Positions 34,117 to 51,959 of a stretch of 64,000 nucleotides of DNA are shown in pieces. A program made the position numbers and the translations under genes. The notes under the pieces are model-generated. The model made no database searches. It worked only from the letters and a program-made list of their open reading frames with translations, and was not told the DNA's origin. Source of the DNA: an uncultured bacterium (GTDB lineage Bacteria > Zixibacteria > MSB-5A5 > UBA10806). How positions within the stretch are numbered: the stretch's first letter is position 1; each line of letters starts with the position of its first letter. The DNA is taken from the NCBI GenBank assembly GCA_965602185.1, contig CBFCYP010000001.1:1413-65412 (forward strand), given 5' to 3'.

Positions 34117-34146
34117 TGTAAGTAATTCGGGGTCATGGAGGTCCCT

Positions 34147-34401
34147 ATGCTGGTATTGACAAGGAAGTCCGGAGAATCGATAGCGATTGGTAACGACATA
34201 AGGGTGACGATTCTGGGGATAAGCGGGAAACAGGCGAAAATCGGAATCTCCGCCCCGGAGAGAGTCCTCGTTTACAGGGAGGAAATTTTCAAGAAAATCC
34301 AGAGCGAAAATATTAAGGCCTCTATGTCGATTAAGGATGATTTGCAGGAATTAGCCACAATTATTAAAGCGAGAAAACGAAAAAACGATGGTGAAAAATA
34401 A
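34147..34401 (+). CDS. csrA: Carbon storage regulator CsrA (FliW-partnered type)
   Basis: [50 protein letters not shown] at 34147 with a GGAGG RBS; fliW lies downstream. Confidence 0.92.
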
Positions 34402-34598
34402 TGAATGCGGAAATTGAAAAATTTTATATATCTGAAAATTCGTATCCGAATAAAAAAGGGGATTACTGGCAGCATAAGTGCGGGTTATTTCATTGGCACA
34501 TTTCCGGGAGTAACGTGAGCCTGAGTTGCCAGGATCCGGATTTGGAGAAAATAACCTGGCCGAATATTGACAGGAAAGAGATACCCGGAGGACCGTAA
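34401..34598 (+). CDS. Hypothetical 65-aa Cys/His/Trp-rich protein translationally coupled between csrA and flgL
   Basis: TAATG overlaps at both ends (csrA stop/start, then stop/flgL start). Without it the csrA-flgL spacer would be 196 nt. No homologue recognised. Confidence 0.35.
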   Translation: MNAEIEKFYISENSYPNKKGDYWQHKCGLFHWHISGSNVSLSCQDPDLEKITWPNIDRKEIPGGP

Positions 34599-36514
34599 TG
34601 AGAATAACCTCAAATATGATAATGAACACGGTGACTCGAAATCTGGCGCTATCGCAATCGCGGTTCTTAAGGATTCAGACCATGGCCAGTTCGGGCAGGA
34701 GAATAAACAGGCCGTCCGACGATCCTATAGGAATAACCAAGGATCTCGGATTCAGATCCGATTTATCGGAGATATCCCAGTTCAGGAAAAATATCAATCA
34801 GGCTCTTTCCTGGTTTAATTTTTCCGACCAGGCCATGGGCAATATGAATGAGCTGATTTCCAGGGCCAAGGAACTGGCGGTTCAGTTTGCCAATGACACT
34901 TATGACCAGAACGCCCGGGCGGCCGGCGCCACCAATATCAGGGACGTTTTCGAACAGATAATCGAAGCCGCAAACACTCAATTCGAGGGTAATTATATAT
35001 TCTCCGGCACGAGAACCGACGTTTCTCCCTTTATGGTGCTTGCGATGGGAGTCGTATACCGGGGAGATTTTGAGCAGATTTCCCTTGAAACGGAATCATC
35101 CTCATATCTCGGAATAAATTCCATAGGTGCAGAATTTCTCACCGTGGCAAGTCGTACTTTGGGCGATGGGTATGATTTAAATCCCGGTATTCAACCGAAT
35201 CTCTGGCTTGATTATCTTCATGGGGGAAACGGTGTCGATCTGGGTGCGGGTCTTTTCAATGTCCGAACATTAAACGGTGAATATGCCATAGACGTATCGG
35301 CGGCAAGGAATATTCAGGATGTTCTCGACGCGTTAAACGGCGCCGGCATCCCGAATTTTAACGCCAGCATAAGCCTGACCGGAAACAGCATCGCTCTTGA
35401 GGATACATCAAACCATTTAATAAACGTCAACACCCCTCTTTCCATGCTCAACGGTGGATTGGGAGTCGATCAAACACCGGGCCTTATAAGGTTCGGCACC
35501 GGCGGCGGAGTGAGCGTGAACGTCGATATTTCCGGATCCGTCACTATCGGTGATGTTATAAACGCTATAAATACGCAACTGCCGGCGGGCGGGATAAACA
35601 ATGTTACAGCTTCGCTTCATCCGGATAAAAACGTGCTGGTTTTAAACGACAACAACGCTGCGCCACTCAATATCATGATCTCGGAGGGTTCGCCCGGAGG
35701 CCAGACAGCATCCGACCTTGGAATATTGGGCGAAATCGGAACCGTGATGGAGGGGGAAGACCTCGAACCGACTCATATACAGGTGGCTGAAAACGCGCCG
35801 GACGAGAATACTGCCAAATATCTGGGGCTTCTTGGCGAATCACAATACGAACAATATGTTGGAGAAGATCTTAATCCCGAACTGGCGTATTTCACCCTGC
35901 TTTCCTCTCTGAGATCCGGAATGGGATTTCCTCTGGGGAAAATCAGGATAGTCAACGGCGATCTGGTGAAGGACGTCGACTTAACGGCTCTGGGAAATGA
36001 TCCCAACGCCACCATAATGGACGTCATAAATCTGATCAACTCATCGGGAATAGAAGTTGAGGCCAGAATAAATGATCAGCATACCGGAATTCAGATTATT
36101 TCCAAAGTTGAAGATAGGTCGCTGATGGTAATCGAGGCGGACGGTGGCCAGACCGCGAAGGATCTCGGAATATTCGGATCGCCCGATATTCTGGGCAATC
36201 TGATGGTGTTAGAGAAGGCATTAGAAAACAACGATGTCGACGAGATAGGATTATGTCTGGAAACCTTCGATACCGCGCTGAATAAGGTGTCGATTGCACG
36301 AGCGGAGGTCGGTGCCCGGACAAACCGGGCCGACATGGCTTCATATCGTCAGTTAACTTTCGAATTACAGATTACCGAGCAACTGTCCAATATAGAAGAT
36401 GCCGATATTGCCAAGGTCATAACGGATCTGGCGTCAGCGGAAGCGGCATATCAGGCCGCTCTCGCGTCCGCAGCCAGATTGATTCAACCGTCTTTAATCA
36501 ATTTTCTTAGATAG
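34598..36514 (+). CDS. flgL: Flagellar hook-associated protein 3 FlgL, enlarged (638 aa)
   Basis: Flagellin-like N-terminus MRITSNMIMNTVTRNLALSQSRFLRIQTMASSGRRINRPSDDPIG and conserved C-terminal helices, with a large central insertion. Confidence 0.9.
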   Translation: MRITSNMIMNTVTRNLALSQSRFLRIQTMASSGRRINRPSDDPIGITKDLGFRSDLSEISQFRKNINQALSWFNFSDQAMGNMNELISRAKELAVQFANDTYDQNARAAGATNIRDVFEQIIEAANTQFEGNYIFSGTRTDVSPFMVLAMGVVYRGDFEQISLETESSSYLGINSIGAEFLTVASRTLGDGYDLNPGIQPNLWLDYLHGGNGVDLGAGLFNVRTLNGEYAIDVSAARNIQDVLDALNGAGIPNFNASISLTGNSIALEDTSNHLINVNTPLSMLNGGLGVDQTPGLIRFGTGGGVSVNVDISGSVTIGDVINAINTQLPAGGINNVTASLHPDKNVLVLNDNNAAPLNIMISEGSPGGQTASDLGILGEIGTVMEGEDLEPTHIQVAENAPDENTAKYLGLLGESQYEQYVGEDLNPELAYFTLLSSLRSGMGFPLGKIRIVNGDLVKDVDLTALGNDPNATIMDVINLINSSGIEVEARINDQHTGIQIISKVEDRSLMVIEADGGQTAKDLGIFGSPDILGNLMVLEKALENNDVDEIGLCLETFDTALNKVSIARAEVGARTNRADMASYRQLTFELQITEQLSNIEDADIAKVITDLASAEAAYQAALASAARLIQPSLINFLR

Positions 36515-36523: not shown

Positions 36524-36994
36524 TTGATCGCGGAGACATCGAGATTCGGTAAGATCGAACACGGAAAATCCGGGATTATCACCATGGTCAGAGGAATATT
36601 GGGCTTTGACTCATATATCAGGTTTATAACAGTAAGCTTGAAAGGACAGGAGCCTTTTAAATGGCTGCAATCCCTTGAAGACCCGGATCTGGCGTTTCTG
36701 ATGATTGATCCTCTTTTCTTTAAGCCCGATTATATTGTCGAAATAAATCCCAATGAACTGGTTATGCTGAAAACCAAAAGTATCGACGATATCGCTATTT
36801 TCGTTCTGGTGTCCATACCAAAAGGACAACCGGCATTGATGTCGGCCAACCTGCAGGCGCCTCTGGCTATTAATAAATCCAACATGAAGGCGGCGCAACT
36901 GGTTCTGGGGGAAAGCCATTACACCACGGATCACTCGATTTTTAAGGATCTGGAGCGGAGACTGGTCGAGACTTCAATGTCGGATCACGATTAA
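36524..36994 (+). CDS. fliW: Flagellar assembly factor FliW (CsrA antagonist)
   Basis: 156 aa; FliW-family sequence (GILGFDSYIRFITVSLKGQEPFKWLQSLEDPDLAFLMIDP). Confidence 0.85.
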   Translation: MIAETSRFGKIEHGKSGIITMVRGILGFDSYIRFITVSLKGQEPFKWLQSLEDPDLAFLMIDPLFFKPDYIVEINPNELVMLKTKSIDDIAIFVLVSIPKGQPALMSANLQAPLAINKSNMKAAQLVLGESHYTTDHSIFKDLERRLVETSMSDHD

Positions 36995-37115: not shown

Positions 37116-38828
37116 ATGCCGGAAGCAGTCGAAACAAAAGAAAAAAAACTCATTTCAAGGGACGAGCTGGCGAGACTCTTAGAAAATGAAGATTATTCGG
37201 AGGCCGAGGACGCGATCCATGCGCTTCTGGAACAATCCCCGGAAGATATTGAATTGTTGAACTCGCTGGGATCGATATACGCCCGGCGGGCGGATTATTT
37301 TAACGCCGAAAGTACGTTTCGGAACGTAATCGGCATTGATCCTGAATGCGGGGATGCTTACTACAACCTGGGCCTTGTTCACAGCAAACAGTCCCGCAGG
37401 ACCGAAGCCGTGGAAGATTTCCTTAAAGCGGTGGAGATTAATCCTCAAGACGCCGCGGCCCACAACGATCTCGGCGTGCTTTATCATTACCAGGGGAAAA
37501 CGCATCTGGCCAAAGGTCATTTCATAAAAGCCCTGGAAGGCAATATCCTTTATAAAAGGGCCTTGATGAACCTCTTCGAGGTCTGCTTCGATGCTGATTC
37601 TTATTCTGAAGGATTGGCTTGGGTCGAGAAGTTTCTAAACGCCTCCACCGGGAGCAACAATTCAGACGATACGAATCATGATATAAATCTCGTTTCGAAA
37701 GAAAACTCTATAATAGAAAAAGCGAATTCGGTTCAAATCGAAGTAAAAACGAAATCCGAACAAAAGCTGTCCCCGGGCGCGCTTAAACTCACCAAAAGAT
37801 CAAACTCGAAAGCGGATGATATTTTCTTAAAACATGTCCCCGAAGAACTGCGCGAGAAGAAAACGGGGAAGAATATAGCCATAATCGCCGATTTCAATAT
37901 CGCCGGGCAGCTGTCTTTGCTGTTCAGGATGATTAACAGGTATACGATTCACAAGGCCCGCATGGTAATAATCCAGGACGATTATCTTACTTATGACAGG
38001 GATCTGATCCTCTCCCGGGACGGCGAAAAAGGCCATAAAGAAGCATTGGATATTGTCGAACATGCGGACTTCTATCATATGGGAAGATTTCCCAAGCCTG
38101 TTGAAAGCGTAAACTGGGAAGAACACCTGAAACCGGATAATTCTCTTATACAATATTACGGCTCCGAGATAAGAACCAACTCGGTTCAATTGTACAGGTG
38201 GCACACTCAGAACAGAATTCTCGGGCTTTCGTGCTGGGATTATACCATGCTGGAAAACGCGCCGTTTTTCTACCATACCAATATCATGTGTGATTTATCG
38301 AGAATAAAACAATGCTCCGAGCCTACCGATACAATCAGGATCTGCCACCCGCCCACCAATCGCCAGTTTAAAAAAACCGATCTCTTTCTCTCCGTCGTCG
38401 AGAAGCTCAAAAAGAAAAATTATCCCTTTGAGGTGGAGTTGATAGAACGTAAATCAAACGAGGAATGCCTGGATATAAAAAGCCGCTGTCACATGACCTA
38501 TGATCAGATCTCCGTCGGTATTTACGGTTTATCCGCCATCGAGTCCATGGCCGCGGGCCACGCCGTCCTGTGCGGGATTTCGAACTTCGCCTCCAGCTAT
38601 CATCCGGATAATCCCGTCGTTTACGTCACCGAAGAGAATCTATATGACAGGCTGGAATACCTCCTCAGAAACAAAGAGGAGATTACCCGTATCGGAAACG
38701 CGGGCAAGATCTGGGCCAGAACTCATCATGATCCCATGAAACTCATAAGGCAATATGTCTGGATATACGACCTGGTGATGAACGGACACAGGATTGTGGA
38801 TGACCGCGATATGTTTCTTCTAACATAG
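37116..38828 (+). CDS. TPR-repeat protein with a C-terminal GT-B-like glycosyltransferase domain
   Basis: N-terminal TPR repeats (AYYNLGLVHSKQSRRTEAVEDFLKAVEINPQDAAAHNDLGVLY). The C-terminal region carries a GT1/GT4-like motif (GLSAIESMAAGHAVLCG). Confidence 0.5.
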   Translation: MPEAVETKEKKLISRDELARLLENEDYSEAEDAIHALLEQSPEDIELLNSLGSIYARRADYFNAESTFRNVIGIDPECGDAYYNLGLVHSKQSRRTEAVEDFLKAVEINPQDAAAHNDLGVLYHYQGKTHLAKGHFIKALEGNILYKRALMNLFEVCFDADSYSEGLAWVEKFLNASTGSNNSDDTNHDINLVSKENSIIEKANSVQIEVKTKSEQKLSPGALKLTKRSNSKADDIFLKHVPEELREKKTGKNIAIIADFNIAGQLSLLFRMINRYTIHKARMVIIQDDYLTYDRDLILSRDGEKGHKEALDIVEHADFYHMGRFPKPVESVNWEEHLKPDNSLIQYYGSEIRTNSVQLYRWHTQNRILGLSCWDYTMLENAPFFYHTNIMCDLSRIKQCSEPTDTIRICHPPTNRQFKKTDLFLSVVEKLKKKNYPFEVELIERKSNEECLDIKSRCHMTYDQISVGIYGLSAIESMAAGHAVLCGISNFASSYHPDNPVVYVTEENLYDRLEYLLRNKEEITRIGNAGKIWARTHHDPMKLIRQYVWIYDLVMNGHRIVDDRDMFLLT

Positions 38829-38838
38829 GGAGAATGAC

Positions 38839-39831
38839 GTGATAAAAGGTAAAAAGATATTTCTATCCGGGGGCGCCGGCTTTATAGGTTCCGCTCTCAT
38901 CGCCCGGCTGATCGATCATAATGAGATTGTAATATACGACACCTACGCGCGCCACAGCCTGAACGGCAGAAGATTCGAAAAACATCCCAATCTCACCTCC
39001 TGCCGCGGCGACATTCTCGATTTCAAAAACATTAAGAAACATATTGACGGCACTAATATTGTCATACATCTCGCGGCCATCGCCGGTATAGATACCGTAA
39101 TAAAATCCCCCGTAAATACCATGCGGGTAAACATGATCGGCACCTCCAATATGCTGGAGGCGGCTTCGGGACTTACATCGCTTGAGCGATTCGTCGATTT
39201 TTCCACGTCGGAGGTTTTCGGATCGTATGCTTATAGATCCGAAGAGGGAGACTCGACGTCGCTGGGCGCGGTGGGAAACGCCCGCTGGACCTACGCCGTC
39301 TCGAAACTCGCCGGGGAGCACCTTTCCTACAGTTATTACAAAGAAAAGAATATCCCCACGACGACCATACGGCCATTTAATATTTATGGCCCCGGACAGG
39401 TCGGCGAAGGCGCCGTACATCATTTTATTACCAGGGCGTTGAAGGGCGAAGATCTTATAATCAGGGGCAACGGCGATCAAATCAGGTCATGGTGTTATAT
39501 TGACGATATCGTGGACGCCATCCTGGCGGTTCTTGAGAATGACGGAGCCGTCGGAGAGTGCTTCAATATAGGAAATCCCCGCGGCACGGTTACCATTTAT
39601 GGTTTGGCGCTGGCCGCTATCAGGGTGACCTATTCCAAATCTAAAATCGTCTTTGTTGACAAGGATGTAGTCGACGTCGAGCTGAGGATTCCCAATATAG
39701 ATAAGGCCAGGTCCATCCTCGGTTTTCAGCCCGGGGTGGATCTCGAGGAGGGTTTAAAATTAACAGCCGATTGGTATTATGACAGAATTCATTCGAATAC
39801 CGCTTTCGAAGCCAGCCTTGCTGGATGCTGA
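38839..39831 (+). CDS. NAD-dependent sugar epimerase/dehydratase (extended SDR)
   Basis: Rossmann motif GGAGFIGSALIARL and catalytic YAVSK (YxxxK). Confidence 0.85.
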   Translation: MIKGKKIFLSGGAGFIGSALIARLIDHNEIVIYDTYARHSLNGRRFEKHPNLTSCRGDILDFKNIKKHIDGTNIVIHLAAIAGIDTVIKSPVNTMRVNMIGTSNMLEAASGLTSLERFVDFSTSEVFGSYAYRSEEGDSTSLGAVGNARWTYAVSKLAGEHLSYSYYKEKNIPTTTIRPFNIYGPGQVGEGAVHHFITRALKGEDLIIRGNGDQIRSWCYIDDIVDAILAVLENDGAVGECFNIGNPRGTVTIYGLALAAIRVTYSKSKIVFVDKDVVDVELRIPNIDKARSILGFQPGVDLEEGLKLTADWYYDRIHSNTAFEASLAGC

Positions 39832-40930
39832 TATTGAGTCAGCGGCAAAGAGTATGAAATCGGGCCGGCTGGTCTGCGGCCGGATGGTTGAAACATTCGA
39901 ACGGCAACTGGCCACATATCTAAAGGTTCGCTATGCGGTTTGCGTTTCATCCGGTACCGCCGCCCTGCATCTCGGTTTGCTCGCCCTGGGTATCGGGCCG
40001 GGCGATGACGTTATCGTGCCGGCTTTCAGTTACCCCGCCAGCGCCAATGCCGTGGAGATCTTAGGCGCCAGACCGGTTTTTATCGATTCCGAGCCGAACG
40101 GCTTTAATATCGACATAAGCAGAATTGAAAACAGCATCACCTCCCGCACAATGGCCTTGATGATTGTTCATAATTTTGGATGGCCGGTTGAGATAAATAG
40201 AATTCGCGCCCTGTCCGCCAAATATGATATCCCCGTAATCGAGGACGCCGCCTGCGCGCTGGGTTCTTCTATAGCGGGCGTCAGGTGCGGAAACCTCGGA
40301 AGATTGGCCGTTTTCAGCTTTCACCCCAGAAAGATTCTGACCACCGGCGAGGGGGGAGCGGTGGTTACCGACGATTTCGAACTTGCCGAAAAGATAAAAA
40401 GGCTGCGTAATCATGGTCAGGATTTCTCCCATGGCGTCGATTTTGTTATGCCGGGATTTAATTATAGAATGACGGAATTTCAGGCCGCTATGGGAGTTTC
40501 GCAGATGAAGCGTTATAATACAACCCTGCGGGAGCGGATAACGGCCGCCGATTTTTACAATAAAAATCTAGCGGATATGGATTGTATACGTCCCTGTTTG
40601 CCTCAAGCGAACCGCAAACTGAATTATCAGACATATATTGCCTTTATTCCGGGCGGTAATAGAGATGAAATTATTGATCATTTGAGAGAATATGATATCG
40701 AGGCCGGCATCGGAACCTATTCCATACCCCATACAGCCTATTATTCGAATAAATACGGCATTGAAGAATCCCGTTACCCGGAATCGTTGAGCGCGTTCGA
40801 AAACATCATGAGCTTGCCATTGTATAACGGCATCACCATGGATGAACAAAACCGTGTAATTGAAATACTTAAAAAGTATAAAGCCGAAAAAAAAGGATCT
40901 CGGATTAAACAAACCGTGGAATCATCATGA
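39779..40930 (+). CDS. DegT/DnrJ/EryC1-family PLP-dependent sugar aminotransferase
   Basis: IPLSKPALLDADIESAAKSMKSGRLVCGRMVETFERQLATYL...SSGTAALHLGL and a typical fold length. Overlaps the upstream SDR gene by 52 nt. Confidence 0.8.
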   Translation: MTEFIRIPLSKPALLDADIESAAKSMKSGRLVCGRMVETFERQLATYLKVRYAVCVSSGTAALHLGLLALGIGPGDDVIVPAFSYPASANAVEILGARPVFIDSEPNGFNIDISRIENSITSRTMALMIVHNFGWPVEINRIRALSAKYDIPVIEDAACALGSSIAGVRCGNLGRLAVFSFHPRKILTTGEGGAVVTDDFELAEKIKRLRNHGQDFSHGVDFVMPGFNYRMTEFQAAMGVSQMKRYNTTLRERITAADFYNKNLADMDCIRPCLPQANRKLNYQTYIAFIPGGNRDEIIDHLREYDIEAGIGTYSIPHTAYYSNKYGIEESRYPESLSAFENIMSLPLYNGITMDEQNRVIEILKKYKAEKKGSRIKQTVESS

Positions 40931-40940
40931 AAGGGACATT

Positions 40941-41531
40941 ATGAATAACACCACCCGGTTTAATGAAATCGGTAAGAACACGCAACCGGCATCTACGGGA
41001 AAATTGTCGGATTTGCAAAAAATATTAAAACTGGCCGCTAACAGTTTCGGCAAAGAAAAATATTCATTGACTATTGATTATTGTAGAAAAGCGGTAAACG
41101 CTGTTGACGGAACCGATCAACATAAACTGGCTGCAGAAGCATATTATATCTGGTGTCTGTCATGCTTTAAAATGAATAAATATGAGGACGCCAGAAAGGT
41201 ATGTTATGAAGCGCGGCTGAAACTGGGCAATTACCTCGATCTGGTTTATTTTGAGATTTTAATAGCGGCCGTTAACGGAGAAATTGACAGGATTCCGAAA
41301 TTCGCAAAAAGCTATATAGAGATTTACGAAGCCGCCGGAGACAAATTCAATCCTTTAAAAGAGAAGACCCACGATAGAATCGGCGAAGTCATGTTGATGA
41401 GTGGTCAGGCTCTCGAACAGGTGCAGAAGAAATCAGAAGCTCTGGATATTTATAAAAAATATTTATCTAAATTCCCCGATGATGTCCCCATAAAAGGACG
41501 GGTCGAAGTTCTGGCAAATCAAATAAACTGA
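40941..41531 (+). CDS. Helical-repeat hypothetical protein, paralogous to the N-terminal module of the downstream TPR-GT2 protein
   Basis: ARLKLGNYLDLVYFEILIA aligns with ARHIFGNYLDACFLEFNIY in the next gene. The ATG at 40941 is preferred over 40860, which would overlap the aminotransferase by 70 nt. Confidence 0.45.
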   Translation: MNNTTRFNEIGKNTQPASTGKLSDLQKILKLAANSFGKEKYSLTIDYCRKAVNAVDGTDQHKLAAEAYYIWCLSCFKMNKYEDARKVCYEARLKLGNYLDLVYFEILIAAVNGEIDRIPKFAKSYIEIYEAAGDKFNPLKEKTHDRIGEVMLMSGQALEQVQKKSEALDIYKKYLSKFPDDVPIKGRVEVLANQIN

Positions 41532-41552
41532 TCATAAGGATAATTTAAGCAG

Positions 41553-44360
41553 ATGGGTAAAAAGAAAAAAACGGATAGGAATAAAACATCTTTTAAAATA
41601 AAAGAACTCTCGCATCTTGAAATAAACGCGGCGGCGACGGGCATGACCGTCAACCCGCATAAAAATTATAATGATATAATTAAAAAAGCGGAAAAATCCG
41701 GCCCTAAACAGGATCTGGCGGCCGGATATTTTGGCCTGGTATTATCCCTGGTCGAAAAGGGAGAGTTTGAAGAGGCTCTGAATAATCTGAATAAAGCCCG
41801 CCATATTTTTGGCAATTATCTGGATGCCTGTTTTCTTGAATTCAACATATATTATAAACGATCCGAATATGAAAAATCCCTGAAAGCGGGGGAGGAGTAT
41901 CTGAAAATAAGGGAGAGTTGCGACCCTCTGAAAGACGCCCATTTGAGTCGGTCCTATAACAGCTACGCCGACGTCCTGTGGGTACTTTCGGATTCGGCGC
42001 GCCGAACGCTCGATTTCAAGAAATCGTTGCGGTATCAGCGGGAGGCCGTATCGCTTCATCCTGAAAATCATTTCTGGCGCATAATATATGCCAGCAACCT
42101 CCAGAAAGATGATTACCTCGATGACGCCATATCTGTAATTGATGAAGGGATTGAGCTGTTTCCCTATGAGGTCGGTTTAAAAAACGCCAAAGCGCTGGTT
42201 TATGGAGATGCGGAGAAATTTGATGAGGCGCTCACGATCCTGGATGAAATCATCGCGGTAAATCCGAAAGACGTAGACGCATTTGTAAATCGGGGCGTGG
42301 TTCTGGAGAAAATGGGTGATTATACAGCCGCGGAAGCCTGTTTCAAAAAAGCCCTGAAAATCGATCCTCGGCATGAAATTGCCAATAGTAATTTAATAAA
42401 GCTGAAAGAGACTATTGATGATAAACCTCAGAAAATTTCTCTTTGTATGATTGTTAAAAACGAGGAGAAATTTCTGCCCGGTTGCCTGGAATCCGCGAAA
42501 GGACTTGCGGACGAATTAATCGTTGTCGACACCGGATCTACGGATCCTACTATGGATATCGCCAGGAAATATGGCGCGATAGTATATGAGCATCCCTGGC
42601 AGAACGATTTTTCCTACCATAGAAATCAATCCATAGACTACGCCACCGGAGACTGGATATTGATCCTGGACGCCGATGAAGAACTGGATCCGTCGGAGCA
42701 CAATATGATCCGTGGCGCCGTTCGTCGTAAAGATATCGACGCGGTATCTTTTGTCGTATACAACAAAATTCAAGGCGGCCGTACCGGATTTTTGAACTCC
42801 CACAGGCTATTCAGAAATAAAAAGGAATATCGCTATTCGGGAATTGTCCATAATCAACTGGTAATGGACGGCATAACTCTATCGACACAACTGAAAGTTT
42901 ATCATCACGGTTACGGTCTTTCGGACGAGCAGATGAAGGCCAAAGGGAAGAGAACCGAAAAACTCCTTAAAGAGCAATTGAAGGAAAATCCCGATAACGC
43001 TTTCGCGCATTTTAACCTGGCGCAAATATATCGCGGGCTCGCCGAGCCGGAGAAAAGCCTTGAGCACGCCCGAAGGGTAATTGAAATATTAAGCCCGGAT
43101 AATGTCGACCGCAGGCATGTTTACGTAATGGCGCTGGATCAGATCGGCTGCGCATACGTCGGACTCGACAATCACGAAAAAGCCAAAGAATATTTTTATA
43201 AGGCTCTTGAGATCAAAGAAGATTATCTCGATCCACTGTTCAATCTGGGCTACGTCTTTTCAAAACAGTGTAATTATGATAAAGCCGATGAGCTTTTCTT
43301 GCGGTATTTGAAAGTACGGGGAAACTTCTCGGAGCATCGTGAATGGATGGGATTGATATTAAATAATCTTAACAGTCATTTCGCGGTTTATTACGGGCTG
43401 GGGCTCTCTCAATATTTCAGGAATAACATCGCTAAAGCCCTGGAGTATTTCCATAAAGTTATTGAGGAAGTAGGAGATTTCGAATATACGCAACATCTTA
43501 TCGCGCGATGTTACAGGCAGAAAAAACAGTTTGATAGGGTCGTCTTTCATTGCGGCAAAGCCATAGAAAACGGACATGAGGATTCCGAAATTTATGTTCT
43601 TCTTGGCGAGGCACATCTTAATCTCGGCAACCATAAGGAGGCGACCGAAAGCTTTGAAAAAGCTCTGCGATATGATGATTCCGGCAACTCCTCGCTTCTG
43701 GGACTGGCGGGAGCGGCATCGCTCGAAGGGGATTTAAAAAAAGCTTCCGAAGCGGTTGACAGGGCTTTGAAAAATACTCCCAACTCACCCCAGGCTTTGG
43801 CGGCCAAGGGAGAATTACTGTACCATTCCAAAAGTTTCATATCGGCCGCGGAAAAATACCGGGAGCAATCCAGGGTATCTCCGGGCGATCCCGCAGCGCT
43901 GAACAACCTGGGAAACTGCTTTTTTAAACAACAGAATTACTCCTCTGCCGAACAATTTTACCGTAGAACCCTGAAATTGTCTTCGGATTTTGCGCTGGCT
44001 TATCGAAATCTCGCCGTCTGCCTCATGAAGCAGAATAAATTTGACGAGTCCACCGCTTATCTGGAAAAATACCTGGAATGTTTCCCGAATGATCCCGAAG
44101 CATACGCCACGCTAGGCGATATTTATTATAACGCCAAAAATTACTGGAAGGCCATCGGGCGTTACGAAAAATATGTCGCGGCGTATCCCGAACAACATGA
44201 TGCCATCTTACGGCTTGCGGACTGCTACTTTAATCTGGGCAAACTCGATTCGGCGAAAATGGGGTATAGAGCGGTTTTGCGATCAAATCCCGATAACAAA
44301 ATCGCAAAGAATCGGCTGGAAGAAATAGCTCGATTTACGGAATCTGTTGAATCGCAATAA
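41553..44360 (+). CDS. Large TPR - GT2 glycosyltransferase - TPR fusion protein (935 aa)
   Basis: Central GT-A/GT2 domain (ISLCMIVKNEEKFLPGCLESAKGLADELIVVDTGSTDPT...DWILILDADEEL, with a DxD motif) flanked by many TPR repeats. Confidence 0.75.
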   Translation: MGKKKKTDRNKTSFKIKELSHLEINAAATGMTVNPHKNYNDIIKKAEKSGPKQDLAAGYFGLVLSLVEKGEFEEALNNLNKARHIFGNYLDACFLEFNIYYKRSEYEKSLKAGEEYLKIRESCDPLKDAHLSRSYNSYADVLWVLSDSARRTLDFKKSLRYQREAVSLHPENHFWRIIYASNLQKDDYLDDAISVIDEGIELFPYEVGLKNAKALVYGDAEKFDEALTILDEIIAVNPKDVDAFVNRGVVLEKMGDYTAAEACFKKALKIDPRHEIANSNLIKLKETIDDKPQKISLCMIVKNEEKFLPGCLESAKGLADELIVVDTGSTDPTMDIARKYGAIVYEHPWQNDFSYHRNQSIDYATGDWILILDADEELDPSEHNMIRGAVRRKDIDAVSFVVYNKIQGGRTGFLNSHRLFRNKKEYRYSGIVHNQLVMDGITLSTQLKVYHHGYGLSDEQMKAKGKRTEKLLKEQLKENPDNAFAHFNLAQIYRGLAEPEKSLEHARRVIEILSPDNVDRRHVYVMALDQIGCAYVGLDNHEKAKEYFYKALEIKEDYLDPLFNLGYVFSKQCNYDKADELFLRYLKVRGNFSEHREWMGLILNNLNSHFAVYYGLGLSQYFRNNIAKALEYFHKVIEEVGDFEYTQHLIARCYRQKKQFDRVVFHCGKAIENGHEDSEIYVLLGEAHLNLGNHKEATESFEKALRYDDSGNSSLLGLAGAASLEGDLKKASEAVDRALKNTPNSPQALAAKGELLYHSKSFISAAEKYREQSRVSPGDPAALNNLGNCFFKQQNYSSAEQFYRRTLKLSSDFALAYRNLAVCLMKQNKFDESTAYLEKYLECFPNDPEAYATLGDIYYNAKNYWKAIGRYEKYVAAYPEQHDAILRLADCYFNLGKLDSAKMGYRAVLRSNPDNKIAKNRLEEIARFTESVESQ

Positions 44361-44391
44361 GTTAATTGTTTCAAAAAAAATCTGTTTGGAT

Positions 44392-44419
44392 TAAAGCGTC
44401 CATATCTTCCTGTCGATTA
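44392..44419 (+). promoter_or_regulatory. Possible sigma28-type promoter for the flagellin gene
   Basis: TAAAGCGT-N12-GTCGATTA against the TAAAGTTT-N11-GCCGATAA consensus (6 of 8 in the -10). A 160-nt leader follows. Confidence 0.35.
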
Positions 44420-44582
44420 TAGATTTCAGAAGATCTAAATATCTATCAGACATAGGTCATCTTCTCCAAGGGGGTGAGCGGATTACAGTTAGGCGAAATG
44501 ATCAGAAAATGCAATAAGCATGATAATTAACAATAAAATGTTAACAGAAGGGACGTTAGCATAATTTCAAGGAGGAAGTTAA

Positions 44583-46838
44583 ATGGCACTAAGAATTAAC
44601 CACAACATCACGGCGTTGGATGCCTGGCGTAATTTGACGATTACGACCAACAAGATGTCCAGGACGATGGAGAAACTGTCGTCAGGTTTCCGTATCAATA
44701 AGGCAGCCGATGATCCGGCCGGGTTGGTTATATCCGAGCAGTTCCGCGCTCAGATCGCCGGGCTGAATCGCGCCGTACAGAACTCAGAGGTTTCGATCAA
44801 TATGATCCAGACCGCTGAGGGAGCCCTCAACGAGATTAACAACCTGCTTATCGGTATGAGGGAATTGGCCATTCACGCCGCTAACGAGGGTGTCAATGAC
44901 GACAACCAGTTAGCTGCTGACCAGGCTGAAATCACCAACGCGATTCGTACTATCGACAGAATCTCTACCAACACTCAATACGGCACGAAGAAATTGCTCG
45001 ACGGCTCAGCGGCCAACGTAGCGGCCATCACCACCGCCAATGTTTCCGGACTGACAGTTACGGAATCGAATTTAAGCGATGGCGTTCACAGCACTACATC
45101 TGTTATGCTGACCGATTCGTCCGCCACTCTCGACGTTTCCAGTCTTGGGTTGAGCACCCCCACGGGTTCCTGGAATCTGGCCGGCGGCGTACACAATCTC
45201 GACGTTATCCAGGCTTCATCAGGCGCGGTTAAGACGGGTGAGGCTATAACCGCTCTCGACGCCTGGGGTAATGGCATCTCATTAACAGGTACAGCCGCTT
45301 CGATTCGCGAAGCATATGTCCGGGGCGCCACGAACTTCACGGCCCTGGCCAACAACAACCAGTACACCATTACATTCCAGCTCAACTTCCAGGAGGCCGG
45401 AAACAACGCCGTTGGTATGCAGACTCTTACCATCAGAACCGATGCCGTCGCGTCCGGTGATCTGGCCAACAATATCGCTTCGAGGCTGAATACAGCCATC
45501 AACTCAAACACCTATCTGGCCGGTAAGCTTCAGGCCACCACTACCCTCGGCGCACCCGACGCCATTCGCGTCAGGACAACCCAGGAAGGCACCAACTACT
45601 CGCTGGCCGTTGGCACCATCACCTCGACAAACGCGACAGTGACCGCCGGTCTTTCCACTTTGCAGAGCCAGAATGATCGCGGACGTTCTCACAATCAGAT
45701 TTCGGTTACGGCTCAATTTGCCTCCAGCTCAACTCTGGTTGACGCTTTCACCAAAACCGCCACCTTCGCTATTGGTAGCGGAACGTTTTCAACGCTTTCA
45801 GCGTTGGCCGCCACAATTAATGGCAAGATGGCTTTGGCCGCCAACTTCGGTACTTTTAGCGATACGGCTGTCGGTCAGGCGAACAAGGTCTACGCGACGG
45901 TTGTTACCGAAGGCGGACAGAGCAAACTGAGATTTTACACCATGGACGAAGGCTCGAAGTTCTCATTGAGGCTGAATATGACCGGAACCGGCACTTCAAC
46001 GGCTCTTTTCAACTCCATAGGAATGACGGTCGACCAGATCGCGAACAAGGGCCTTGACGCCATCGTAAGATTCGACGGTTACAACAACTCGATAAACGAT
46101 GTTCGTTACTTCTACACCGCCGCCTCTTATTCCAATGAGGATCAGACGCTCTATACCAGCGCGGACGCCAATACCCGCGGCTCTGTAACCATGACAGCGG
46201 CTCCGGCCCAGACTAATGGTGGAATCAACATTGGTAATATGTTGCTTACTGTCAAAGCCCGCACCTTCTCGGTCAGGCTTGACGGCGGCACCGAAGAGAT
46301 CGTTACGGCCGGTAAAGAAACAACCGTCTTCAACTCACAGAGAGATGAATGGGTTAAGATGCGCCTCTCGCTGAAATCCGATGGCGGCACCGAGCAGCTA
46401 TACGTTACCGACAGAAGCCTCGTCTTCCAGATCGGCGCCAATGTCGGGCAAACCGCCAAGATTGCGATCAGTAATCTCTCAGCATCATATCTCGGCCAGA
46501 ACCTCGATAGCAATATATTCTCGAGCCTTGCCGAAATCGATGTTACCACGGCCCAGGGCGCTCAGGATTCCCAGAACATTATTGACGCGGCCATTAACCA
46601 GGTTACCAATATCAGAGGAACCCTGGGATCCTTCCAGAAGAATACCCTGGAATCCAACCTGACCAACCTCAGAATCGCCGCTCAGAACCTGACAGCCTCC
46701 GAATCCAATATCCGCGACACCGATATGGCCAGAGAGATGTCCGAATTCGTCAAACACCAGATACTGATGCAGGCCGGTACTGCCATGCTCGCGCAGGGCA
46801 ACCAGCTCCCGCAGGTTGTGCTTTCACTGTTCGGCTAA
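44583..46838 (+). CDS. fliC: Flagellin, giant (751 aa) with a Thr/Ser/Ala/Asn-rich central region
   Basis: N-terminal D0/D1 (MALRINHNITALDAWRNL...AADDPAGLVISEQFRAQIAGLNRAVQN); C-terminus LRIAAQNLTASESNIRDTDMAREMSEFVKHQILMQAGTAMLAQGNQLPQVVLSLFG. AAGGAGGAA RBS. Confidence 0.93.
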   Translation: MALRINHNITALDAWRNLTITTNKMSRTMEKLSSGFRINKAADDPAGLVISEQFRAQIAGLNRAVQNSEVSINMIQTAEGALNEINNLLIGMRELAIHAANEGVNDDNQLAADQAEITNAIRTIDRISTNTQYGTKKLLDGSAANVAAITTANVSGLTVTESNLSDGVHSTTSVMLTDSSATLDVSSLGLSTPTGSWNLAGGVHNLDVIQASSGAVKTGEAITALDAWGNGISLTGTAASIREAYVRGATNFTALANNNQYTITFQLNFQEAGNNAVGMQTLTIRTDAVASGDLANNIASRLNTAINSNTYLAGKLQATTTLGAPDAIRVRTTQEGTNYSLAVGTITSTNATVTAGLSTLQSQNDRGRSHNQISVTAQFASSSTLVDAFTKTATFAIGSGTFSTLSALAATINGKMALAANFGTFSDTAVGQANKVYATVVTEGGQSKLRFYTMDEGSKFSLRLNMTGTGTSTALFNSIGMTVDQIANKGLDAIVRFDGYNNSINDVRYFYTAASYSNEDQTLYTSADANTRGSVTMTAAPAQTNGGINIGNMLLTVKARTFSVRLDGGTEEIVTAGKETTVFNSQRDEWVKMRLSLKSDGGTEQLYVTDRSLVFQIGANVGQTAKIAISNLSASYLGQNLDSNIFSSLAEIDVTTAQGAQDSQNIIDAAINQVTNIRGTLGSFQKNTLESNLTNLRIAAQNLTASESNIRDTDMAREMSEFVKHQILMQAGTAMLAQGNQLPQVVLSLFG

Positions 46839-46856: not shown

Positions 46857-46892
46857 TAGAGGGGATGGGATTCAACCATCCCCCTTTTTTTT
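46857..46892 (+). terminator. Rho-independent terminator downstream of the flagellin gene
   Basis: GAGGGGATGG-gattcaa-CCATCCCC hairpin followed by TTTTTTTT. Confidence 0.85.
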
Positions 46893-46977: not shown

Positions 46978-47063
46978 AATAATGGAATAACGCAGTATCC
47001 CTTTTGTTTTTCTGAAAGCGGGTGCCGTCTGCGGTAACGGCCCGTTTAACAGGAGGCATTGAA

Positions 47064-49418
47064 ATGGCATCAGGAACCATTGACGGCATATATTCAGGTC
47101 TAAATACTACTGAAATTATAAACAGTATCATTGAAGCCGAGAGGGCAAAACAGAATGTTTATCTGGCCAGGCAGGCCGAATACACGCAGAAACTTACCAG
47201 CTGGCAGACTATAAACTCGTATCTTCTGGCATTCAAGACTCAGGCCGATGTTTTATCAAAAGCGTCTCTTTGGGATAAAATCTCGGTTACGTCCTCGGAT
47301 TCGGATATAATATCCGCAACCGGAAGCGGAAGTTCGGCCAGCGGAACGTATTTCGTCTCTGTGGATCAACTGGCTCAAAATCAGCAGATAGCGAGCCAGG
47401 GCTATTCCTCCGATCAAACTATAGTGGGTACCGGTACAATCGAGATCTCCGTTGGAGGCAGCTCCCCTATTACCATTAATATGGAAGCCGGCAGCAATAG
47501 TCTGAACGCGCTGAAACAGGCTATAAATGACGCCGGCGCGGGAGTGACCGCGGCAATTATAAACGACGGATCGGGAAATAATCCCTTCAGGCTGATCCTG
47601 TCAGCCAACGAAACCGGGGCGGATAGCGAGATTACGGTGACGACTGATCTTATAGGCGGAACCCAGCCCGATTTCGGTACCAGTTATTTTGATATTCCCG
47701 AAAAAATCGAATGGTCGCCGAATGCGACTTCAAATCCGTCGCTGGGAGCCGGCGCCGGTTACACGGGTACTGTCAATAAGATCTATGACTTCACCATAGA
47801 CGGTTCAACGCCCAAGACCATCGGCGTTGATGAAATCGCCATAAACTGGACCGACGGCACGAATTCCGGTTCAATAACAATTCCTTCTACTTTTAATCCC
47901 GCCACGGATGAAGTGGTTTTAACGGGCGATGGCTCGGACGGGTTGACATTGTCGTTTTCCTCGGGCGTTCTCGTGGGAGGGGATACGTTTCAGGTGCAGG
48001 TTCTGGCGCCTACGATTCAAGCCGGTCAGGATGCGATCCTGAGGCTCGGTTCCCAGGGTTCCGGCGGTTCTCCCATTGTTGTCACATCCTCCTCCAATAC
48101 CGTGACAACGCTCATCGATGGAGTTACCCTGGAATTGCATGATGTTTCCTCGGGTTCGATTAGAATAACGGTTGATACGGACCATTCCAGCATTTTATCC
48201 ACGGTTCAGGATCTGGTCAGCAAATACAACGAGTTCGCGGAGTTTGTGGATCAACAGATGAGTTTTAACGCCGAAGCCAATACCGCCGGTGTGCTGCTGG
48301 GCGAAATCTCCCTGGTGAATCTGCTTTCATATATTAGATCCGATATTACCCGGAGAGTCAGGGGATTGGATGGAGATCTCAGAACACTTTCAGACGTCGG
48401 AGTGAAATTTGATATTCATGGAAAGCTGAGCGTCAATACCTCGGTTTTGACGGAGTTATTAAATGATGATCCTGAAGCGGTGAAAAAGCTGTTTCTGGCG
48501 TCAGGCAATTCCGACAACGGATATGTTAAGTTTCTGTCTGCGGGCCCGGATGCAGTCCCCTCCGAAAGCGGATATGACGTCGATATCACTCAGGCTGCCA
48601 CCCGGGGAACCTATGCCGGAGTGTCCATTGATAGCCCGGCGCTATCTAATATCGATCTGACCAATAATAATAACAGAATAAAAATATCGGTAAACGGGAC
48701 AACTTCGGGAGAAATTTCGCTTGAAGCGAGGATTTATACCAGTGGTGATGATCTTGCCGCGGAGATCGAGGAAAAAATCAATGCCGATGAATCTCTGGGT
48801 TCCAATGAGGTGGAGGTTGTATGGGTGAATAACGGAGATACCGGTCATTTCGAAATAACGTCCTCCATCTGGGGTTCAAATTCCAAAGTTAATCTTGATG
48901 TCGAACCCGCCTGGAGCGCGCATTCCATACTGGGGCTTTCAGAGGGGACGTCTACCGACGGCACCGACATCGAAGGCACCATAAACGGTGAACCGGCAAC
49001 GGGGGTGGGCCAGGTTCTTACAGGAGACGACGACAACGAAAATACCGCCGGTCTGAAACTCAAGGTTAGCCTGACGCCGGATCTGCTGGTCGACGGCGCA
49101 GAGGGCAAGATTACCCTAACCAAAGGCATCGCCGCTATGTTGAGCGAGAAAATTGACGCTTACACCGATGCAAACGATGGAATTTTGAATTCGAGAACCA
49201 AAACCATTGAAAAGCAAATTAACAATATTAAGGAGCAAATAGAGAGAATGGAAGAACAGCTTGAAGTCAAAAGGCAAAGTCTTTACAAACAATTTATCGC
49301 TATGGAAGAGGCGATCGGAAAGTTACAGAGTCAGCAGATGTTTCTTTCCTCCGCCCTCGCGAGTTTAAATTCCTCTTCGGCTTACAATAATAGGTCCAGC
49401 GGTATGATATCGTACTAA
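47064..49418 (+). CDS. fliD: Flagellar filament cap protein FliD, enlarged (784 aa)
   Basis: N-terminus SGLNTTEIINSIIEAERAKQNVYLARQAEYTQKLTSWQTINSYLLAF and a C-terminal coiled coil (IEKQINNIKEQIERMEEQLEVKRQSLYKQFIAMEEAIGKLQSQQ). An AGGAGG RBS precedes the ATG at 47064. Confidence 0.88.
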   Translation: MASGTIDGIYSGLNTTEIINSIIEAERAKQNVYLARQAEYTQKLTSWQTINSYLLAFKTQADVLSKASLWDKISVTSSDSDIISATGSGSSASGTYFVSVDQLAQNQQIASQGYSSDQTIVGTGTIEISVGGSSPITINMEAGSNSLNALKQAINDAGAGVTAAIINDGSGNNPFRLILSANETGADSEITVTTDLIGGTQPDFGTSYFDIPEKIEWSPNATSNPSLGAGAGYTGTVNKIYDFTIDGSTPKTIGVDEIAINWTDGTNSGSITIPSTFNPATDEVVLTGDGSDGLTLSFSSGVLVGGDTFQVQVLAPTIQAGQDAILRLGSQGSGGSPIVVTSSSNTVTTLIDGVTLELHDVSSGSIRITVDTDHSSILSTVQDLVSKYNEFAEFVDQQMSFNAEANTAGVLLGEISLVNLLSYIRSDITRRVRGLDGDLRTLSDVGVKFDIHGKLSVNTSVLTELLNDDPEAVKKLFLASGNSDNGYVKFLSAGPDAVPSESGYDVDITQAATRGTYAGVSIDSPALSNIDLTNNNNRIKISVNGTTSGEISLEARIYTSGDDLAAEIEEKINADESLGSNEVEVVWVNNGDTGHFEITSSIWGSNSKVNLDVEPAWSAHSILGLSEGTSTDGTDIEGTINGEPATGVGQVLTGDDDNENTAGLKLKVSLTPDLLVDGAEGKITLTKGIAAMLSEKIDAYTDANDGILNSRTKTIEKQINNIKEQIERMEEQLEVKRQSLYKQFIAMEEAIGKLQSQQMFLSSALASLNSSSAYNNRSSGMISY

Positions 49419-49442: not shown

Positions 49443-49877
49443 GTGGCAAATAAAGAGCTGAAAACGTACAGAGATGTTAAAATCAGGAATATGAGTCAAC
49501 GGGAGCTCATAGTTTTCCTTTATGAATCCTCGTTAAGATTAATGGAGGAAGGAAAAGAAAAGATCGCCGCGGGAGACATACCCGGCACCCATGAAAAACT
49601 TGACCGCGCCAGAAACATTTTCCTGCATCTGCTGGCAACGTTGAATCTCGAATCGGGCGGAGAATTCGCCAGAAGGCTATCAGCCCTTTATTCTTATTTT
49701 GTGGAAAAGATCACCATGGCGAACGTGTCCCAAAATGTAGACGAACTGGATGAAATCATTCCATTCGTCAGCGAGATAAAAGAAGCCTGGGAGAAAATGG
49801 AATTTGAAGATCCCGGAAAATCTTCCCCGGGAATCAACAATAACCCGGAGAATCAATTAATCTCGATGGAGGTGTAG
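49443..49877 (+). CDS. fliS: Flagellin export chaperone FliS
   Basis: 144 aa with FliS-family sequence (RELIVFLYESSLRLMEEGKEKIAAGDIPGTHEKLDRARNIFLHLLATL). GTG start. Confidence 0.85.
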   Translation: MANKELKTYRDVKIRNMSQRELIVFLYESSLRLMEEGKEKIAAGDIPGTHEKLDRARNIFLHLLATLNLESGGEFARRLSALYSYFVEKITMANVSQNVDELDEIIPFVSEIKEAWEKMEFEDPGKSSPGINNNPENQLISMEV

Positions 49878-50317
49878 TGAATAATTCCAAGGCCAAGCTG
49901 GTCGCACTCCTGGAATCCAAAAAACGCCTTTTTCAAGATATGGAGAAGATCCTGATCGAACAGGAAAATCTCCTTAAAAATAGGGAGCTTGATGGATTTC
50001 GTGATAAAAGCGAGAATATCGACAGTATTATTGAAAAAATAAAAAACACCGATTATGACATCGCCCGCCTCGAGTCCGATTATACGAGTCTTTCCGGGAT
50101 GCTAAATTCCGGCGATGATGAAATCAAAAGAATACTGGATGGCATAATTAAAATCTCGAAAAGAAATTACGGGCTTATGGATAAGCTGGCTGAAAACCTG
50201 AAAAAATCCTATCAGGATCTTAAGGAAGAGCTGGGTGACACGGTCGAGATGGGCAAAATCAGCGGGTATAAAACTGCAACGCAACCCTCGCCCGTGTATT
50301 TCGATAAAACCAGCTAA
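49877..50317 (+). CDS. FliT-like flagellar chaperone, hypothetical
   Basis: 146-aa helical protein translationally coupled to fliS (GTGA overlap); assigned by position and size. Confidence 0.4.
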   Translation: MNNSKAKLVALLESKKRLFQDMEKILIEQENLLKNRELDGFRDKSENIDSIIEKIKNTDYDIARLESDYTSLSGMLNSGDDEIKRILDGIIKISKRNYGLMDKLAENLKKSYQDLKEELGDTVEMGKISGYKTATQPSPVYFDKTS

Positions 50318-50341
50318 GATATTCGCGCGACTCGCCGATAC
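50315..50341 (+). promoter_or_regulatory. Candidate sigma28 promoter for flgM and the HDOD gene
   Basis: TAAGATAT-N11-GCCGATAC, ending 22 nt before the flgM ATG. Confidence 0.45.
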
Positions 50342-50362
50342 AGACAATGAGATAATGCGATT

Positions 50363-51933: not shown

Positions 51934-51959
51934 TAAATTTGGACTTTTGTTGCCGATAA
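51934..51959 (+). promoter_or_regulatory. Near-consensus sigma28-type promoter immediately upstream of tRNA-Val
   Basis: TAAATTTG-N10-GCCGATAA, an 8 of 8 match to the -10 consensus. The -10 ends 8 nt before tRNA nucleotide 1. Confidence 0.4.

Follow-up and report, generated by a model that had tools for sequence, protein, structure and literature searches.

What would five genes between fliW and the flagellin gene of an uncultured bacterium be doing? The question is raised by a 64,000-nucleotide stretch of contig CBFCYP010000001.1 (the window), which was taken from an uncultured metagenome-assembled genome (MAG) and whose nearest named relatives are Candidatus Zixiibacteriota MAGs; exact sequence matches are on metagenome contigs (ENA ERZ25073488 and others). 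All of the evidence considered here is in silico. The genes are likely to form an island for the O-glycosylation of flagellin in the cytoplasm of a Zixibacteria bacterium, and the most likely sugar route resembles that to 4-amino-4-deoxyarabinose (Ara4N). The island encodes two glycosyltransferases (GT), a short-chain dehydrogenase/reductase (SDR) of the extended type, a pyridoxal phosphate (PLP)-dependent aminotransferase and a small helical protein. The genes, their borders and the two catalytic domains are as follows.

36524..36994, + strand: fliW, the upstream border of the island (Pfam FliW, E 1e-34)
37116..38828, + strand: TPR + GT-B glycosyltransferase, 570 aa (Pfam TPR matches at aa 16-160; no transmembrane segment)
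37818..38825, + strand: GT-B (GT4-like) catalytic domain, aa 235-570 of the 570-aa protein
38839..39831, + strand: extended SDR, 330 aa (Pfam Epimerase, E 3e-52; 63% identity to PDB 8VR2)
39779..40930, + strand: DegT/PLP sugar aminotransferase, 383 aa (Pfam DegT, E 5e-104; 53-nt overlap with the SDR gene)
40941..41531, + strand: helical, TPR-like protein, 196 aa (gene-caller start; sub-threshold TPR matches)
41553..44360, + strand: TPR-GT2-TPR protein, 935 aa (Pfam TPR families and Glycos_transf_2; no transmembrane segment)
42432..43022, + strand: GT2 (GT-A) catalytic domain, aa 294-490 of the 935-aa protein (GmaR/SunS similarity)
44583..46838, + strand: flagellin, the presumed acceptor, 751 aa (Flagellin_N, E 7e-35; Flagellin_C, E 1e-22)

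The island very probably serves flagellin glycosylation, because it lies inside the flagellar regulon and beside the flagellin gene, its proteins appear to be soluble and lipid-carrier machinery is lacking. The five genes run in the same direction on the + strand and separate fliW from the flagellin gene, with successive gaps among them of 10, -53 (an overlap), 10 and 21 nt. Hydrophobic segments of transmembrane strength were found in none of the five proteins (0/5), and the FliO and FliP controls do show them. By Pfam content, the island includes no lipid-carrier, flippase or oligosaccharyltransferase gene. An earlier note on this DNA had proposed a flagellin glycosylation island of five genes; its gene content was confirmed by Pfam and coordinates, and the proposal itself is supported by the place beside the flagellin gene, the soluble proteins and the GmaR-like GT2 domain.

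The position of the island is more than chance, as the same place is taken in other Zixibacteria, where the arrangement recurs with proteins that are 55-65% identical. Locus L096, whose GT-B protein is 65% identical, has the same minimal gene set in the same place. L009 and L097 (about 55% identical) share the frame of the island and carry a formyltransferase-like gene and a hexapeptide acyltransferase gene between the aminotransferase gene and the small helical gene; L009 additionally has a 75-aa open reading frame (ORF) there. The flagellin of these three Zixibacteria loci is 750-751 aa long. In a Planctomycetota MAG, the TPR + GT-B gene is located directly upstream of the gene for an 811-aa flagellin. 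In L008, a flaF/flbT-type locus, a standalone GT-B gene together with SDR, aminotransferase and LbH acetyltransferase genes is found beside flagellin and several GT41-TPR genes. The row in L016 is fliD, flagellin, a 1037-aa GT2-TPR-GT-B fusion, SDR, aminotransferase and acetyltransferase.

The GT2-domain and GT-B-domain enzymes are the island's two TRANSFERASES. The 935-aa protein is a candidate flagellin O-glycosyltransferase of the GmaR/SunS type. Its Pfam GT2 match covers aa 296-420 (E 2.6e-23), and the closest solved structures in the PDB are GmaR 22ao (E 4e-31; 39% identity, 184 aligned positions) and the peptide S-glycosyltransferase SunS 7msp (E 5e-28; 43% identity over the N-terminal part). 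The 204-aa GT-domain chain 22ao was the only GmaR entry among PDB matches that were crowded with TPR proteins. The motifs VDTGSTD (325-331), DAD (373-375) and YHHGY (450-454) were located, and the motifs common to the domain, GmaR and SunS are IVKNEE, VDTGSTD, NDFS..RN, DAD and YHHGY. When the protein was compared with the SunS equivalog model TIGR04195, it scored 101.5 bits against a cut-off of 350, and is thus a relative of SunS and not a SunS equivalog.

The small helical protein listed in the earlier note is present, more likely as a 196-aa protein starting at 40941 than as a 223-aa ORF with a TTG start; the latter was set aside, an independent gene caller having given the shorter form. 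The protein (40941-41531) is a diverged paralogue of aa 56-172 (41718-42068) of the 935-aa protein, as indicated by BLASTP (E 5e-6, 22% identity), and a GNYLD-containing stretch is common to the two. It is kept in the same place in L009 (37% identity to a 144-aa protein). The helical protein may serve as an adaptor or compete for the same partner.

The 570-aa protein is a candidate transferase of the amino sugar made by the island. Its GT-B domain has a two-Rossmann fold closest to structures of GT4 enzymes that use nucleoside diphosphate (NDP)-sugars. The only Pfam match of the domain was to PF13524, which is weak and sub-threshold (E 0.0015; 18.9 bits, where the cut-off is 25). The domain family is without a Pfam model and is structurally predictable. 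A first search returned 82 homologues of the protein, nearly all from Zixibacteria and some of them standalone (about 350 aa). When a profile of the catalytic domain was used in an exhaustive HMMER search, 149 cluster representatives were recovered at E<=1e-30, while the 7110 representatives at E<=1e-3 correspond to the GT-B periphery. The residues that are invariant in the family, H411, R416, K419, E444, K455, D463 and E476, are all located in the C-terminal Rossmann half. This half is the nucleotide-sugar binding site in GT4 enzymes.

The 32 long or multidomain representatives of the GT-B family include TPR repeats in 21 cases and a GT2 domain in 11. In L016 (3137-10745) both island transferases are fused in the 1037-aa protein, which is encoded between the flagellin gene and the SDR, aminotransferase and LbH genes. 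In L031 (12817-15234), a non-flagellar Zixibacteria locus, an 805-aa GT2-TPR-Glyco_trans_1_2 protein comes after the SDR, the aminotransferase, an ArnA-like formyltransferase and a deacetylase-methyltransferase. Because L016, L031 and the fusions in the family join GT2 with GT-B, there is Rosetta-stone evidence that the two transferases of the window work on one substrate.

The GT-B family was also encountered on contigs of viral appearance, an assignment that rests on Pfam labels and on three IMG/VR contigs. A standalone gene is present on the phage-like contigs L093 (8061-13374) and L094 (4029-10299), and the IMG/VR viral contigs are L100 (6001-12071), L101 and L102. L093 also encodes PhageMetallopep, dCTP deaminase, nucleoside deoxyribosyltransferase, RNR and HNH proteins. 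In every case an aminotransferase gene, a hexapeptide acetyltransferase gene or both stand beside the GT-B gene, and an orthologous SDR was found on L093 only; the SDR of L094 was rejected as an orthologue, being of the epimerase type with SSSASVYG. A PHROGs scan of ten proteins of L093 and L094 gave no match. A virion protein, DNA and the host surface are candidate acceptors on these contigs.

If the acceptor is flagellin, the next question is which sugar is made. The SDR is predicted to be an NDP-sugar C4-oxidase that releases a 4-keto sugar, and a UXS/ArnA-type UDP-hexuronate decarboxylase is its most likely identity, a call that draws on a motif, a small neighbour-joining tree and synteny in relatives. 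The closest PDB entry was 8VR2 (E 9e-119), and the next was the UDP-glucuronate decarboxylase UXS1 (E 1.6e-37). The motifs of the SDR are FSTSEVFG and YAVSK (YxxxK), and they align with STSEVYG of UXS1 and ArnA. FSTSEVFG is invariant across the SDR subfamily; S-T-S-E is found in UXS, ArnA and GMD, whereas RmlB has T-D-E. In the neighbour-joining tree the subfamily is sister to ArnA-C plus UXS1, a placement that is suggestive only, as few outgroups were included.

To analyze the genomic context of the SDR, 80 species genomes were scanned with the sequence of 8VR2, and the counts below refer to 80 SDR loci. The closest genome relative of 8VR2 (85%) is from Pseudoalteromonas phenolica, and the usual context is SDR, aminotransferase and hexapeptide acetyltransferase. 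The PDB also holds a matching aminotransferase (8VR3/8VR5; 9BGP/9BGR) and acetyltransferase (8VR6/8VR7/8VRM), both of which follow the 8VR2-type SDR in Pseudoalteromonas. Because all three enzymes have been deposited, the trio is therefore a studied three-enzyme pathway. In the clade nearest to 8VR2, the SDR comes directly after WbpE-like and WlbB/WbpD-like genes; in L027 it follows WbpE (E 4.5e-175 to P. aeruginosa WbpE) and WlbB (E 1e-93). WbpE and WlbB/WbpD make UDP-2,3-diacetamido-2,3-dideoxy-glucuronic acid (UDP-GlcNAc3NAcA). WlbB-like genes lie <=6 kb from the SDR in 17 of the 80 loci, and UDP-sugar 6-dehydrogenase-like genes were detected by tblastn in the flanks of 13/80. In L041, L045 and L052 the 6-dehydrogenase-like match stops about 150-230 bp before the SDR. 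A neighbour-family census of 33 SDR loci, covering two genes on each side, found a UDP-sugar dehydrogenase in 2.

A uronic acid that is oxidised at C4 is a beta-keto acid, which decarboxylates, so that a 4-acetamido-pentose is the logical product of the trio where it comes after WbpE and WlbB genes. In the Gamma- and Betaproteobacteria loci L013, L015, L019, L022, L025 and L027, the 8VR2-type trio stands directly after WbpE/WlbB-like genes, and in L013 the WbuX/Y/Z amidotransferase genes come after the trio. From this arrangement, a route to 2,3,4-triamino-pentoses appears to be widespread in O-antigen-type clusters. The O-antigen of Psychrobacter cryohalolentis contains 2,3,4-triacetamido-2,3,4-trideoxy-L-arabinose (PMC8040287), and our guess is that the 8VR2 trio makes a 2,3,4-triacetamido-pentose of this kind. 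In the non-flagellar L031, the SDR and the aminotransferase are followed by a formyltransferase that is 39% identical to the ArnA formyltransferase domain.

The aminotransferase of the island probably acts at C-4. It matched PDB 9BGP/8VR3/8VR5 with E 1e-72 to 1e-75, and shares 42% identity with the L027 aminotransferase encoded after the SDR and 30% with E. coli ArnB. The NCBIfam ranking was PseC (284 bits), ArnB (244) and LegC (239), all below cut-off. The VioA/WecE model TIGR02379 gave 179.8 bits against a cut-off of 434.85, ranking below PseC, ArnB, LegC, the PRK11706 transaminase and DesI. PseC and ArnB are UDP-sugar enzymes and VioA/WecE are dTDP-sugar models, and in this the aminotransferase agrees with the decarboxylase call for the SDR.

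Taken from these comparisons, the chance that the island sugar is a 4-amino-4-deoxypentose (Ara4N-like) appears somewhat better than even. This pentosamine is favoured over viosamine because of the STSE motif, the kinship with 8VR2 and UXS1 and the uronic-acid-gene synteny in relatives. A 4-amino-4,6-dideoxyhexose, bacillosamine-type sugars included, is rather unlikely, and some other product takes the remainder. The earlier note had read the two genes as a dehydratase and an aminotransferase making a viosamine-like glycan. The SDR and DegT identities stand; the SDR is not RmlB-like, the UXS/ArnA type being favoured, and a viosamine-like glycan is doubtful with S-T-S-E in place of the T-D-E of RmlB and scores below all dehydratase cut-offs.

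Several results weigh against a flagellin island with an Ara4N-like sugar, some bearing on the acceptor and others on the sugar. The island is known from the DNA of an uncultured MAG alone, and flagellin modification is a prediction. The D0/D1 ends of the flagellin are conserved, and between them is a central region of about 515 aa, which the earlier note, putting it at about 480 aa, had described as extremely rich in Thr, Ser, Ala and Asn. Serine plus threonine make up 23.9% of this region compared with 23.7% of the central region of the unglycosylated E. coli K-12 FliC, and with alanine and asparagine included the values are 43.9% and 44.7%. Since the Ser/Thr content equals that of an unglycosylated flagellin, composition gives glycosylation no support, and Ser/Thr richness was rejected as evidence. 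Nor is the flagellin giant, as had been written; at 751 aa it is large. The GT-B domain has an incomplete EX7E motif, in which the second Glu (E476) is invariant and the first position is G468. The earlier note had regarded inactivating substitutions in the DxD or EX7E motifs as refuting: DAD is kept in the GT2 domain and E476 in the GT-B domain, and the first Glu of EX7E is replaced.

Moreover, relatives of the GT-B family occur in polysaccharide-type clusters (L030, L031, L067) and on viral contigs, and flagellin is for this reason not the sole acceptor of the family. The possibility was considered that the transferases act not on flagellin but on other proteins or on a glycan, soluble or at the cell surface, or that the TPR proteins mainly regulate or chaperone flagellar assembly, with glycosylation being secondary. 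The non-flagellar and phage-like settings of the GT-B relatives are in keeping with such a role, as are the small helical paralogue, which hints at protein-protein regulation, and the bifunctional GmaR, which is also an anti-repressor (PMC9638930). However, several Zixibacteria lineages keep the island in its place directly upstream of the flagellin gene, and the linkage to flagellin recurs in Planctomycetota, L008 and L016. Furthermore, the catalytic motifs were rated intact in both transferases, and neither the Pfam content nor the transmembrane scan revealed polysaccharide export or lipid-carrier machinery. A role away from flagellin is accordingly given a small probability.

With regard to the sugar, the best NCBIfam score of the SDR was to the dTDP-glucose 4,6-dehydratase model TIGR01181, 173.9 bits against a cut-off of 365. 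The scores to LegB (133.6 against 475), to the UDP-4-keto-pentose/UDP-xylose synthase model NF008872 (122.7 against 294) and to the ArnA model NF005998 (100.9 against 777) were lower, and no NCBIfam cut-off was reached. Pairwise BLAST was not discriminating, with identities of 29.4% to E. coli RfbB, 29.2% to ArnA-C and 27% to Gmd. The window and the sister Zixibacteria loci contain neither ugd nor any other uronic-acid gene. A search of a literature library by entry code and by topic found no function or publication for 8VR2, 8VR3, 8VR5 and 9BGP.

These observations bear on an alternative in which the SDR is an NDP-hexose 4,6-dehydratase and a 4-amino-4,6-dideoxyhexose is attached to flagellin by the same two transferases. 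The product would be viosamine-like if made from UDP/dTDP-glucose, or of the bacillosamine type if made from UDP/GDP-GlcNAc. Pseudomonas and Burkholderia are known to have flagellin glycans of the viosamine type together with transferases that contain TPR repeats. The two top scores of the SDR, to the dTDP-glucose dehydratase and LegB models, and the lack of ugd in the window fit this alternative; the best models of the aminotransferase, PseC and LegC, act on 6-deoxy sugars, and the E. coli GMD-type 4,6-dehydratase has S-T-S-E too. However, the scores of both the SDR and the aminotransferase are far under the curated cut-offs, the SDR has T-S-E where the T-D-E motif would be expected, and VioA/WecE come last of the sugar aminotransferase models that were matched. 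Additionally, rmlA or another nucleotidyltransferase gene is absent from the window and from the 25 commonest neighbour families of the 33 SDR loci, and the synteny of the subfamily with uronic-acid genes and an ArnA-like formyltransferase favours decarboxylation. The 4,6-dehydratase alternative is consequently considered unlikely, at about one chance in a few.

Could the same two genes encode the first steps of a nonulosonic acid pathway, LegB/LegC- or PseB/PseC-like, with the other genes located elsewhere and the TPR + GT-B protein acting as an FlmG-type CMP-nonulosonate transferase? FlmG, a transferase of pseudaminic acid, is likewise built of TPR + GT-B, the best NCBIfam matches include the PseC and LegC/LegB models, and neuraminic-type flagellin islands of Geobacillus intersperse arnA-like SDR and degT genes (PMC5109656). 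On the other hand, the parts of the window that were scanned, the examined sister loci and the commonest neighbour families of the SDR include no NeuB/PseI, PseF/NeuA, PseG or PseH gene. The earlier note had likewise reported no pseB/pseI/neuB-type genes, and this holds for the window as far as it was scanned. Of the SDR, no more than the first 123 residues are matched by the PseB model (46.6 bits), and the GT-B domain resembles GT4 enzymes, which are users of NDP-sugars. A nonulosonate pathway is very improbable.

On the preferred reading, that of a flagellin island with an Ara4N-like sugar, gene content, folds, motifs, homologies, synteny and fusions are observed here, and every enzymatic step, the acceptor and the sugar are inferred from them. 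All sugar and transfer steps would take place in the cytoplasm, before the FliS-dependent export of flagellin. The SDR would oxidise a housekeeping UDP-sugar at C4 and release the 4-keto sugar; the likeliest substrate is a UDP-hexuronic acid, from which CO2 would be lost as in UXS/ArnA. The DegT enzyme would then aminate C4 to give a UDP-4-amino-4-deoxypentose (Ara4N-like) or, less likely, a 4-amino-4,6-dideoxyhexose. The TPR repeats of both soluble transferases would dock on flagellin, and Ser/Thr residues of the unexported protein would be modified. The GmaR/SunS-type GT2 enzyme, presumably inverting, probably adds the first sugar from a common UDP-hexose or UDP-HexNAc, and the TPR + GT-B enzyme probably adds the amino sugar, since its gene always travels with the SDR/aminotransferase pair. 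Alternatively, the order of the GT2 and GT-B steps may be reversed, or the two may act at independent sites. The amine may stay free in the lineage of the window, because the formyl- and acyltransferase genes of the sister islands are missing from it.

The transcription signals around the island and the csrA gene are listed below.

34135-34401: csrA
44392..44419, + strand: sigma-28-like promoter TAAA-N16-GTCGATTA upstream of the flagellin gene (consensus match only)
46861..46892, + strand: intrinsic-terminator-like hairpin and T-run 3' of the flagellin gene (8-bp stem with 6 GC pairs, tail CTTTTTTTTG)

The pattern search for sigma-28-like promoters gave 2 matches in the window compared with 0.23 expected by chance. 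The other match, TAAA-N14-GCCGATAA, is located at 51934-51959 between the HDOD gene and thrS. Sigma-70 and terminator scans within the island were at chance level. The 5' leader of the flagellin gene (44440-44582) has GGA-rich elements, CAAGGGGGTGAGCGGATTACAG and, at the ribosome-binding site, AAGGAGGAAG; these could be candidate CsrA sites for a FliW-CsrA-flagellin partner switch. The csrA gene is positioned between flgK and flgL, while in Bacillus it comes after fliW. A 65-aa ORF without a family match (34401-34598) directly follows csrA, and an independent gene caller agrees with it.

A flagellar supercluster of 50 kb, on the + strand throughout, encloses the island and fills most of the window before the housekeeping genes. 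The order is fliK, flgD, flgE, fliL, fliM, fliN, fliO, fliP ... flhF, fliA ... flgG, flgA, flgH, flgI, flgJ-like, flgN, flgK, csrA, flgL, fliW and the island. On its 3' side are flagellin, fliD and fliS, then an HDOD protein, and after it thrS, infC and pheST, which are housekeeping genes. Other long exposed axial proteins are FlgE (767 aa, 6051-8354), FlgL (638 aa, 34598-36514) and FliD (798 aa, 47022-49418), and Ser plus Thr amount to about 20-21% in FlgE and FliD. Two ORFs of 146 and 156 aa without a Pfam match lie 3' of fliS (49877-50833), and the HDOD-domain protein follows them at 50836-51732.

Flagellin glycosylation islands are already well known, and one in another phylum is unsurprising. 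The interest lies in the GT-B family that Pfam does not capture, in its cassette-like linkage to a donor pathway and in the possibility of a pentosamine on flagellin. If the reading is true, flagellins would gain a new glycan class, a pentosamine of the Ara4N type that may be cationic, and Arn-type chemistry a new use. The GT-B family (149 cluster representatives at E<=1e-30) is genetically linked to its donor-sugar genes, so that its specificity is directly testable. The split form of Zixibacteria and the fused GT2-TPR-GT-B form offer a natural system for the programming of acceptor specificity by TPR repeats; how these control the acceptors of cytoplasmic protein O-glycosylation is the question raised by the FlmG work. 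A broader proposal can be put forward only tentatively and is more doubtful than not: that the Ara4N chemistry of lipid A, with a decarboxylating SDR like UXS/ArnA, an ArnB-like aminotransferase and optionally an ArnA-like formyltransferase, has been redeployed on flagellin in Zixibacteria, that the GT-B/SDR/aminotransferase cassette moves across phyla and viral contigs, that fusion to TPR or to a GmaR-type GT2 gives flagellin specificity, and that, in the lineage of the window, which lacks the N-acyl- and formyltransferases, free amines are displayed on the filament.

How does the island compare with known systems? In FlmG of Caulobacter crescentus, flagellins are bound by the TPR part, and the GT part does not suffice by itself (PMC7591256). 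The 570-aa protein resembles it in architecture: both are soluble, about 570-600 aa long and encoded with flagellar genes, and both join an N-terminal TPR part to a C-terminal GT-B-like domain. It differs in that FlmG transfers pseudaminic acid and needs NeuB-type genes, of which there are none in the scanned window or the sister loci, whereas the island gene is tied to the SDR/aminotransferase pair and the fold of its product is closest to NDP-sugar enzymes of GT4.

GmaR of Listeria monocytogenes is a flagellin beta-O-GlcNAc transferase and the MogR anti-repressor, with the layout GT-TPR-linker-antirepressor (PMC9638930). The 935-aa protein shares with GmaR and SunS the GT2 domain, its motifs and the TPR repeats after the catalytic domain, but its N-terminal TPR block of about 290 aa is an addition, and its C-terminal TPR array is much longer. 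Nothing in it identifies an anti-repressor domain, and no search for mogR was made. By analogy, the suggestion of the earlier note that the TPR scaffolds recognise flagellin is supported, as it has a precedent in FlmG (PMC7591256) and a counterpart in a proposal for GmaR (PMC9638930).

The trio represented by PDB 8VR2 is close to the sugar genes of the island, with 63% identity for the SDR, E 1e-72 for the aminotransferase and the same SDR-aminotransferase order in Pseudoalteromonas L013 and many genomes. It differs by sitting in O-antigen-type clusters, often after WbpE/WlbB, and by having an N-acetyltransferase, which the window lacks. The likeness to ArnA and ArnB consists of an S-T-S-E extended SDR followed by a DegT aminotransferase, and in sister Zixibacteria loci of a formyltransferase after these, that of L031 being the one 39% identical to the ArnA domain. 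However, identity to E. coli ArnA-C and ArnB is just 29-30%, under the equivalog cut-offs; the island is without an ArnC/ArnT/undecaprenyl step, and its presumed acceptor is a protein and not lipid A.

The islands of Pseudomonas syringae, Pseudomonas aeruginosa and Burkholderia (vioA, fgt, FlmQ) make viosamine-type glycans from dTDP-glucose by an RmlB-type dehydratase and VioA. They are generally known to share with the present island a place beside the flagellin gene, an amino-sugar aminotransferase and dedicated transferases. In contrast, the SDR of the island is without T-D-E, and VioA/WecE are the weakest models for its aminotransferase. The sugar genes of the island thus resemble a split ArnA/ArnB pair more than the vio genes of Pseudomonas.

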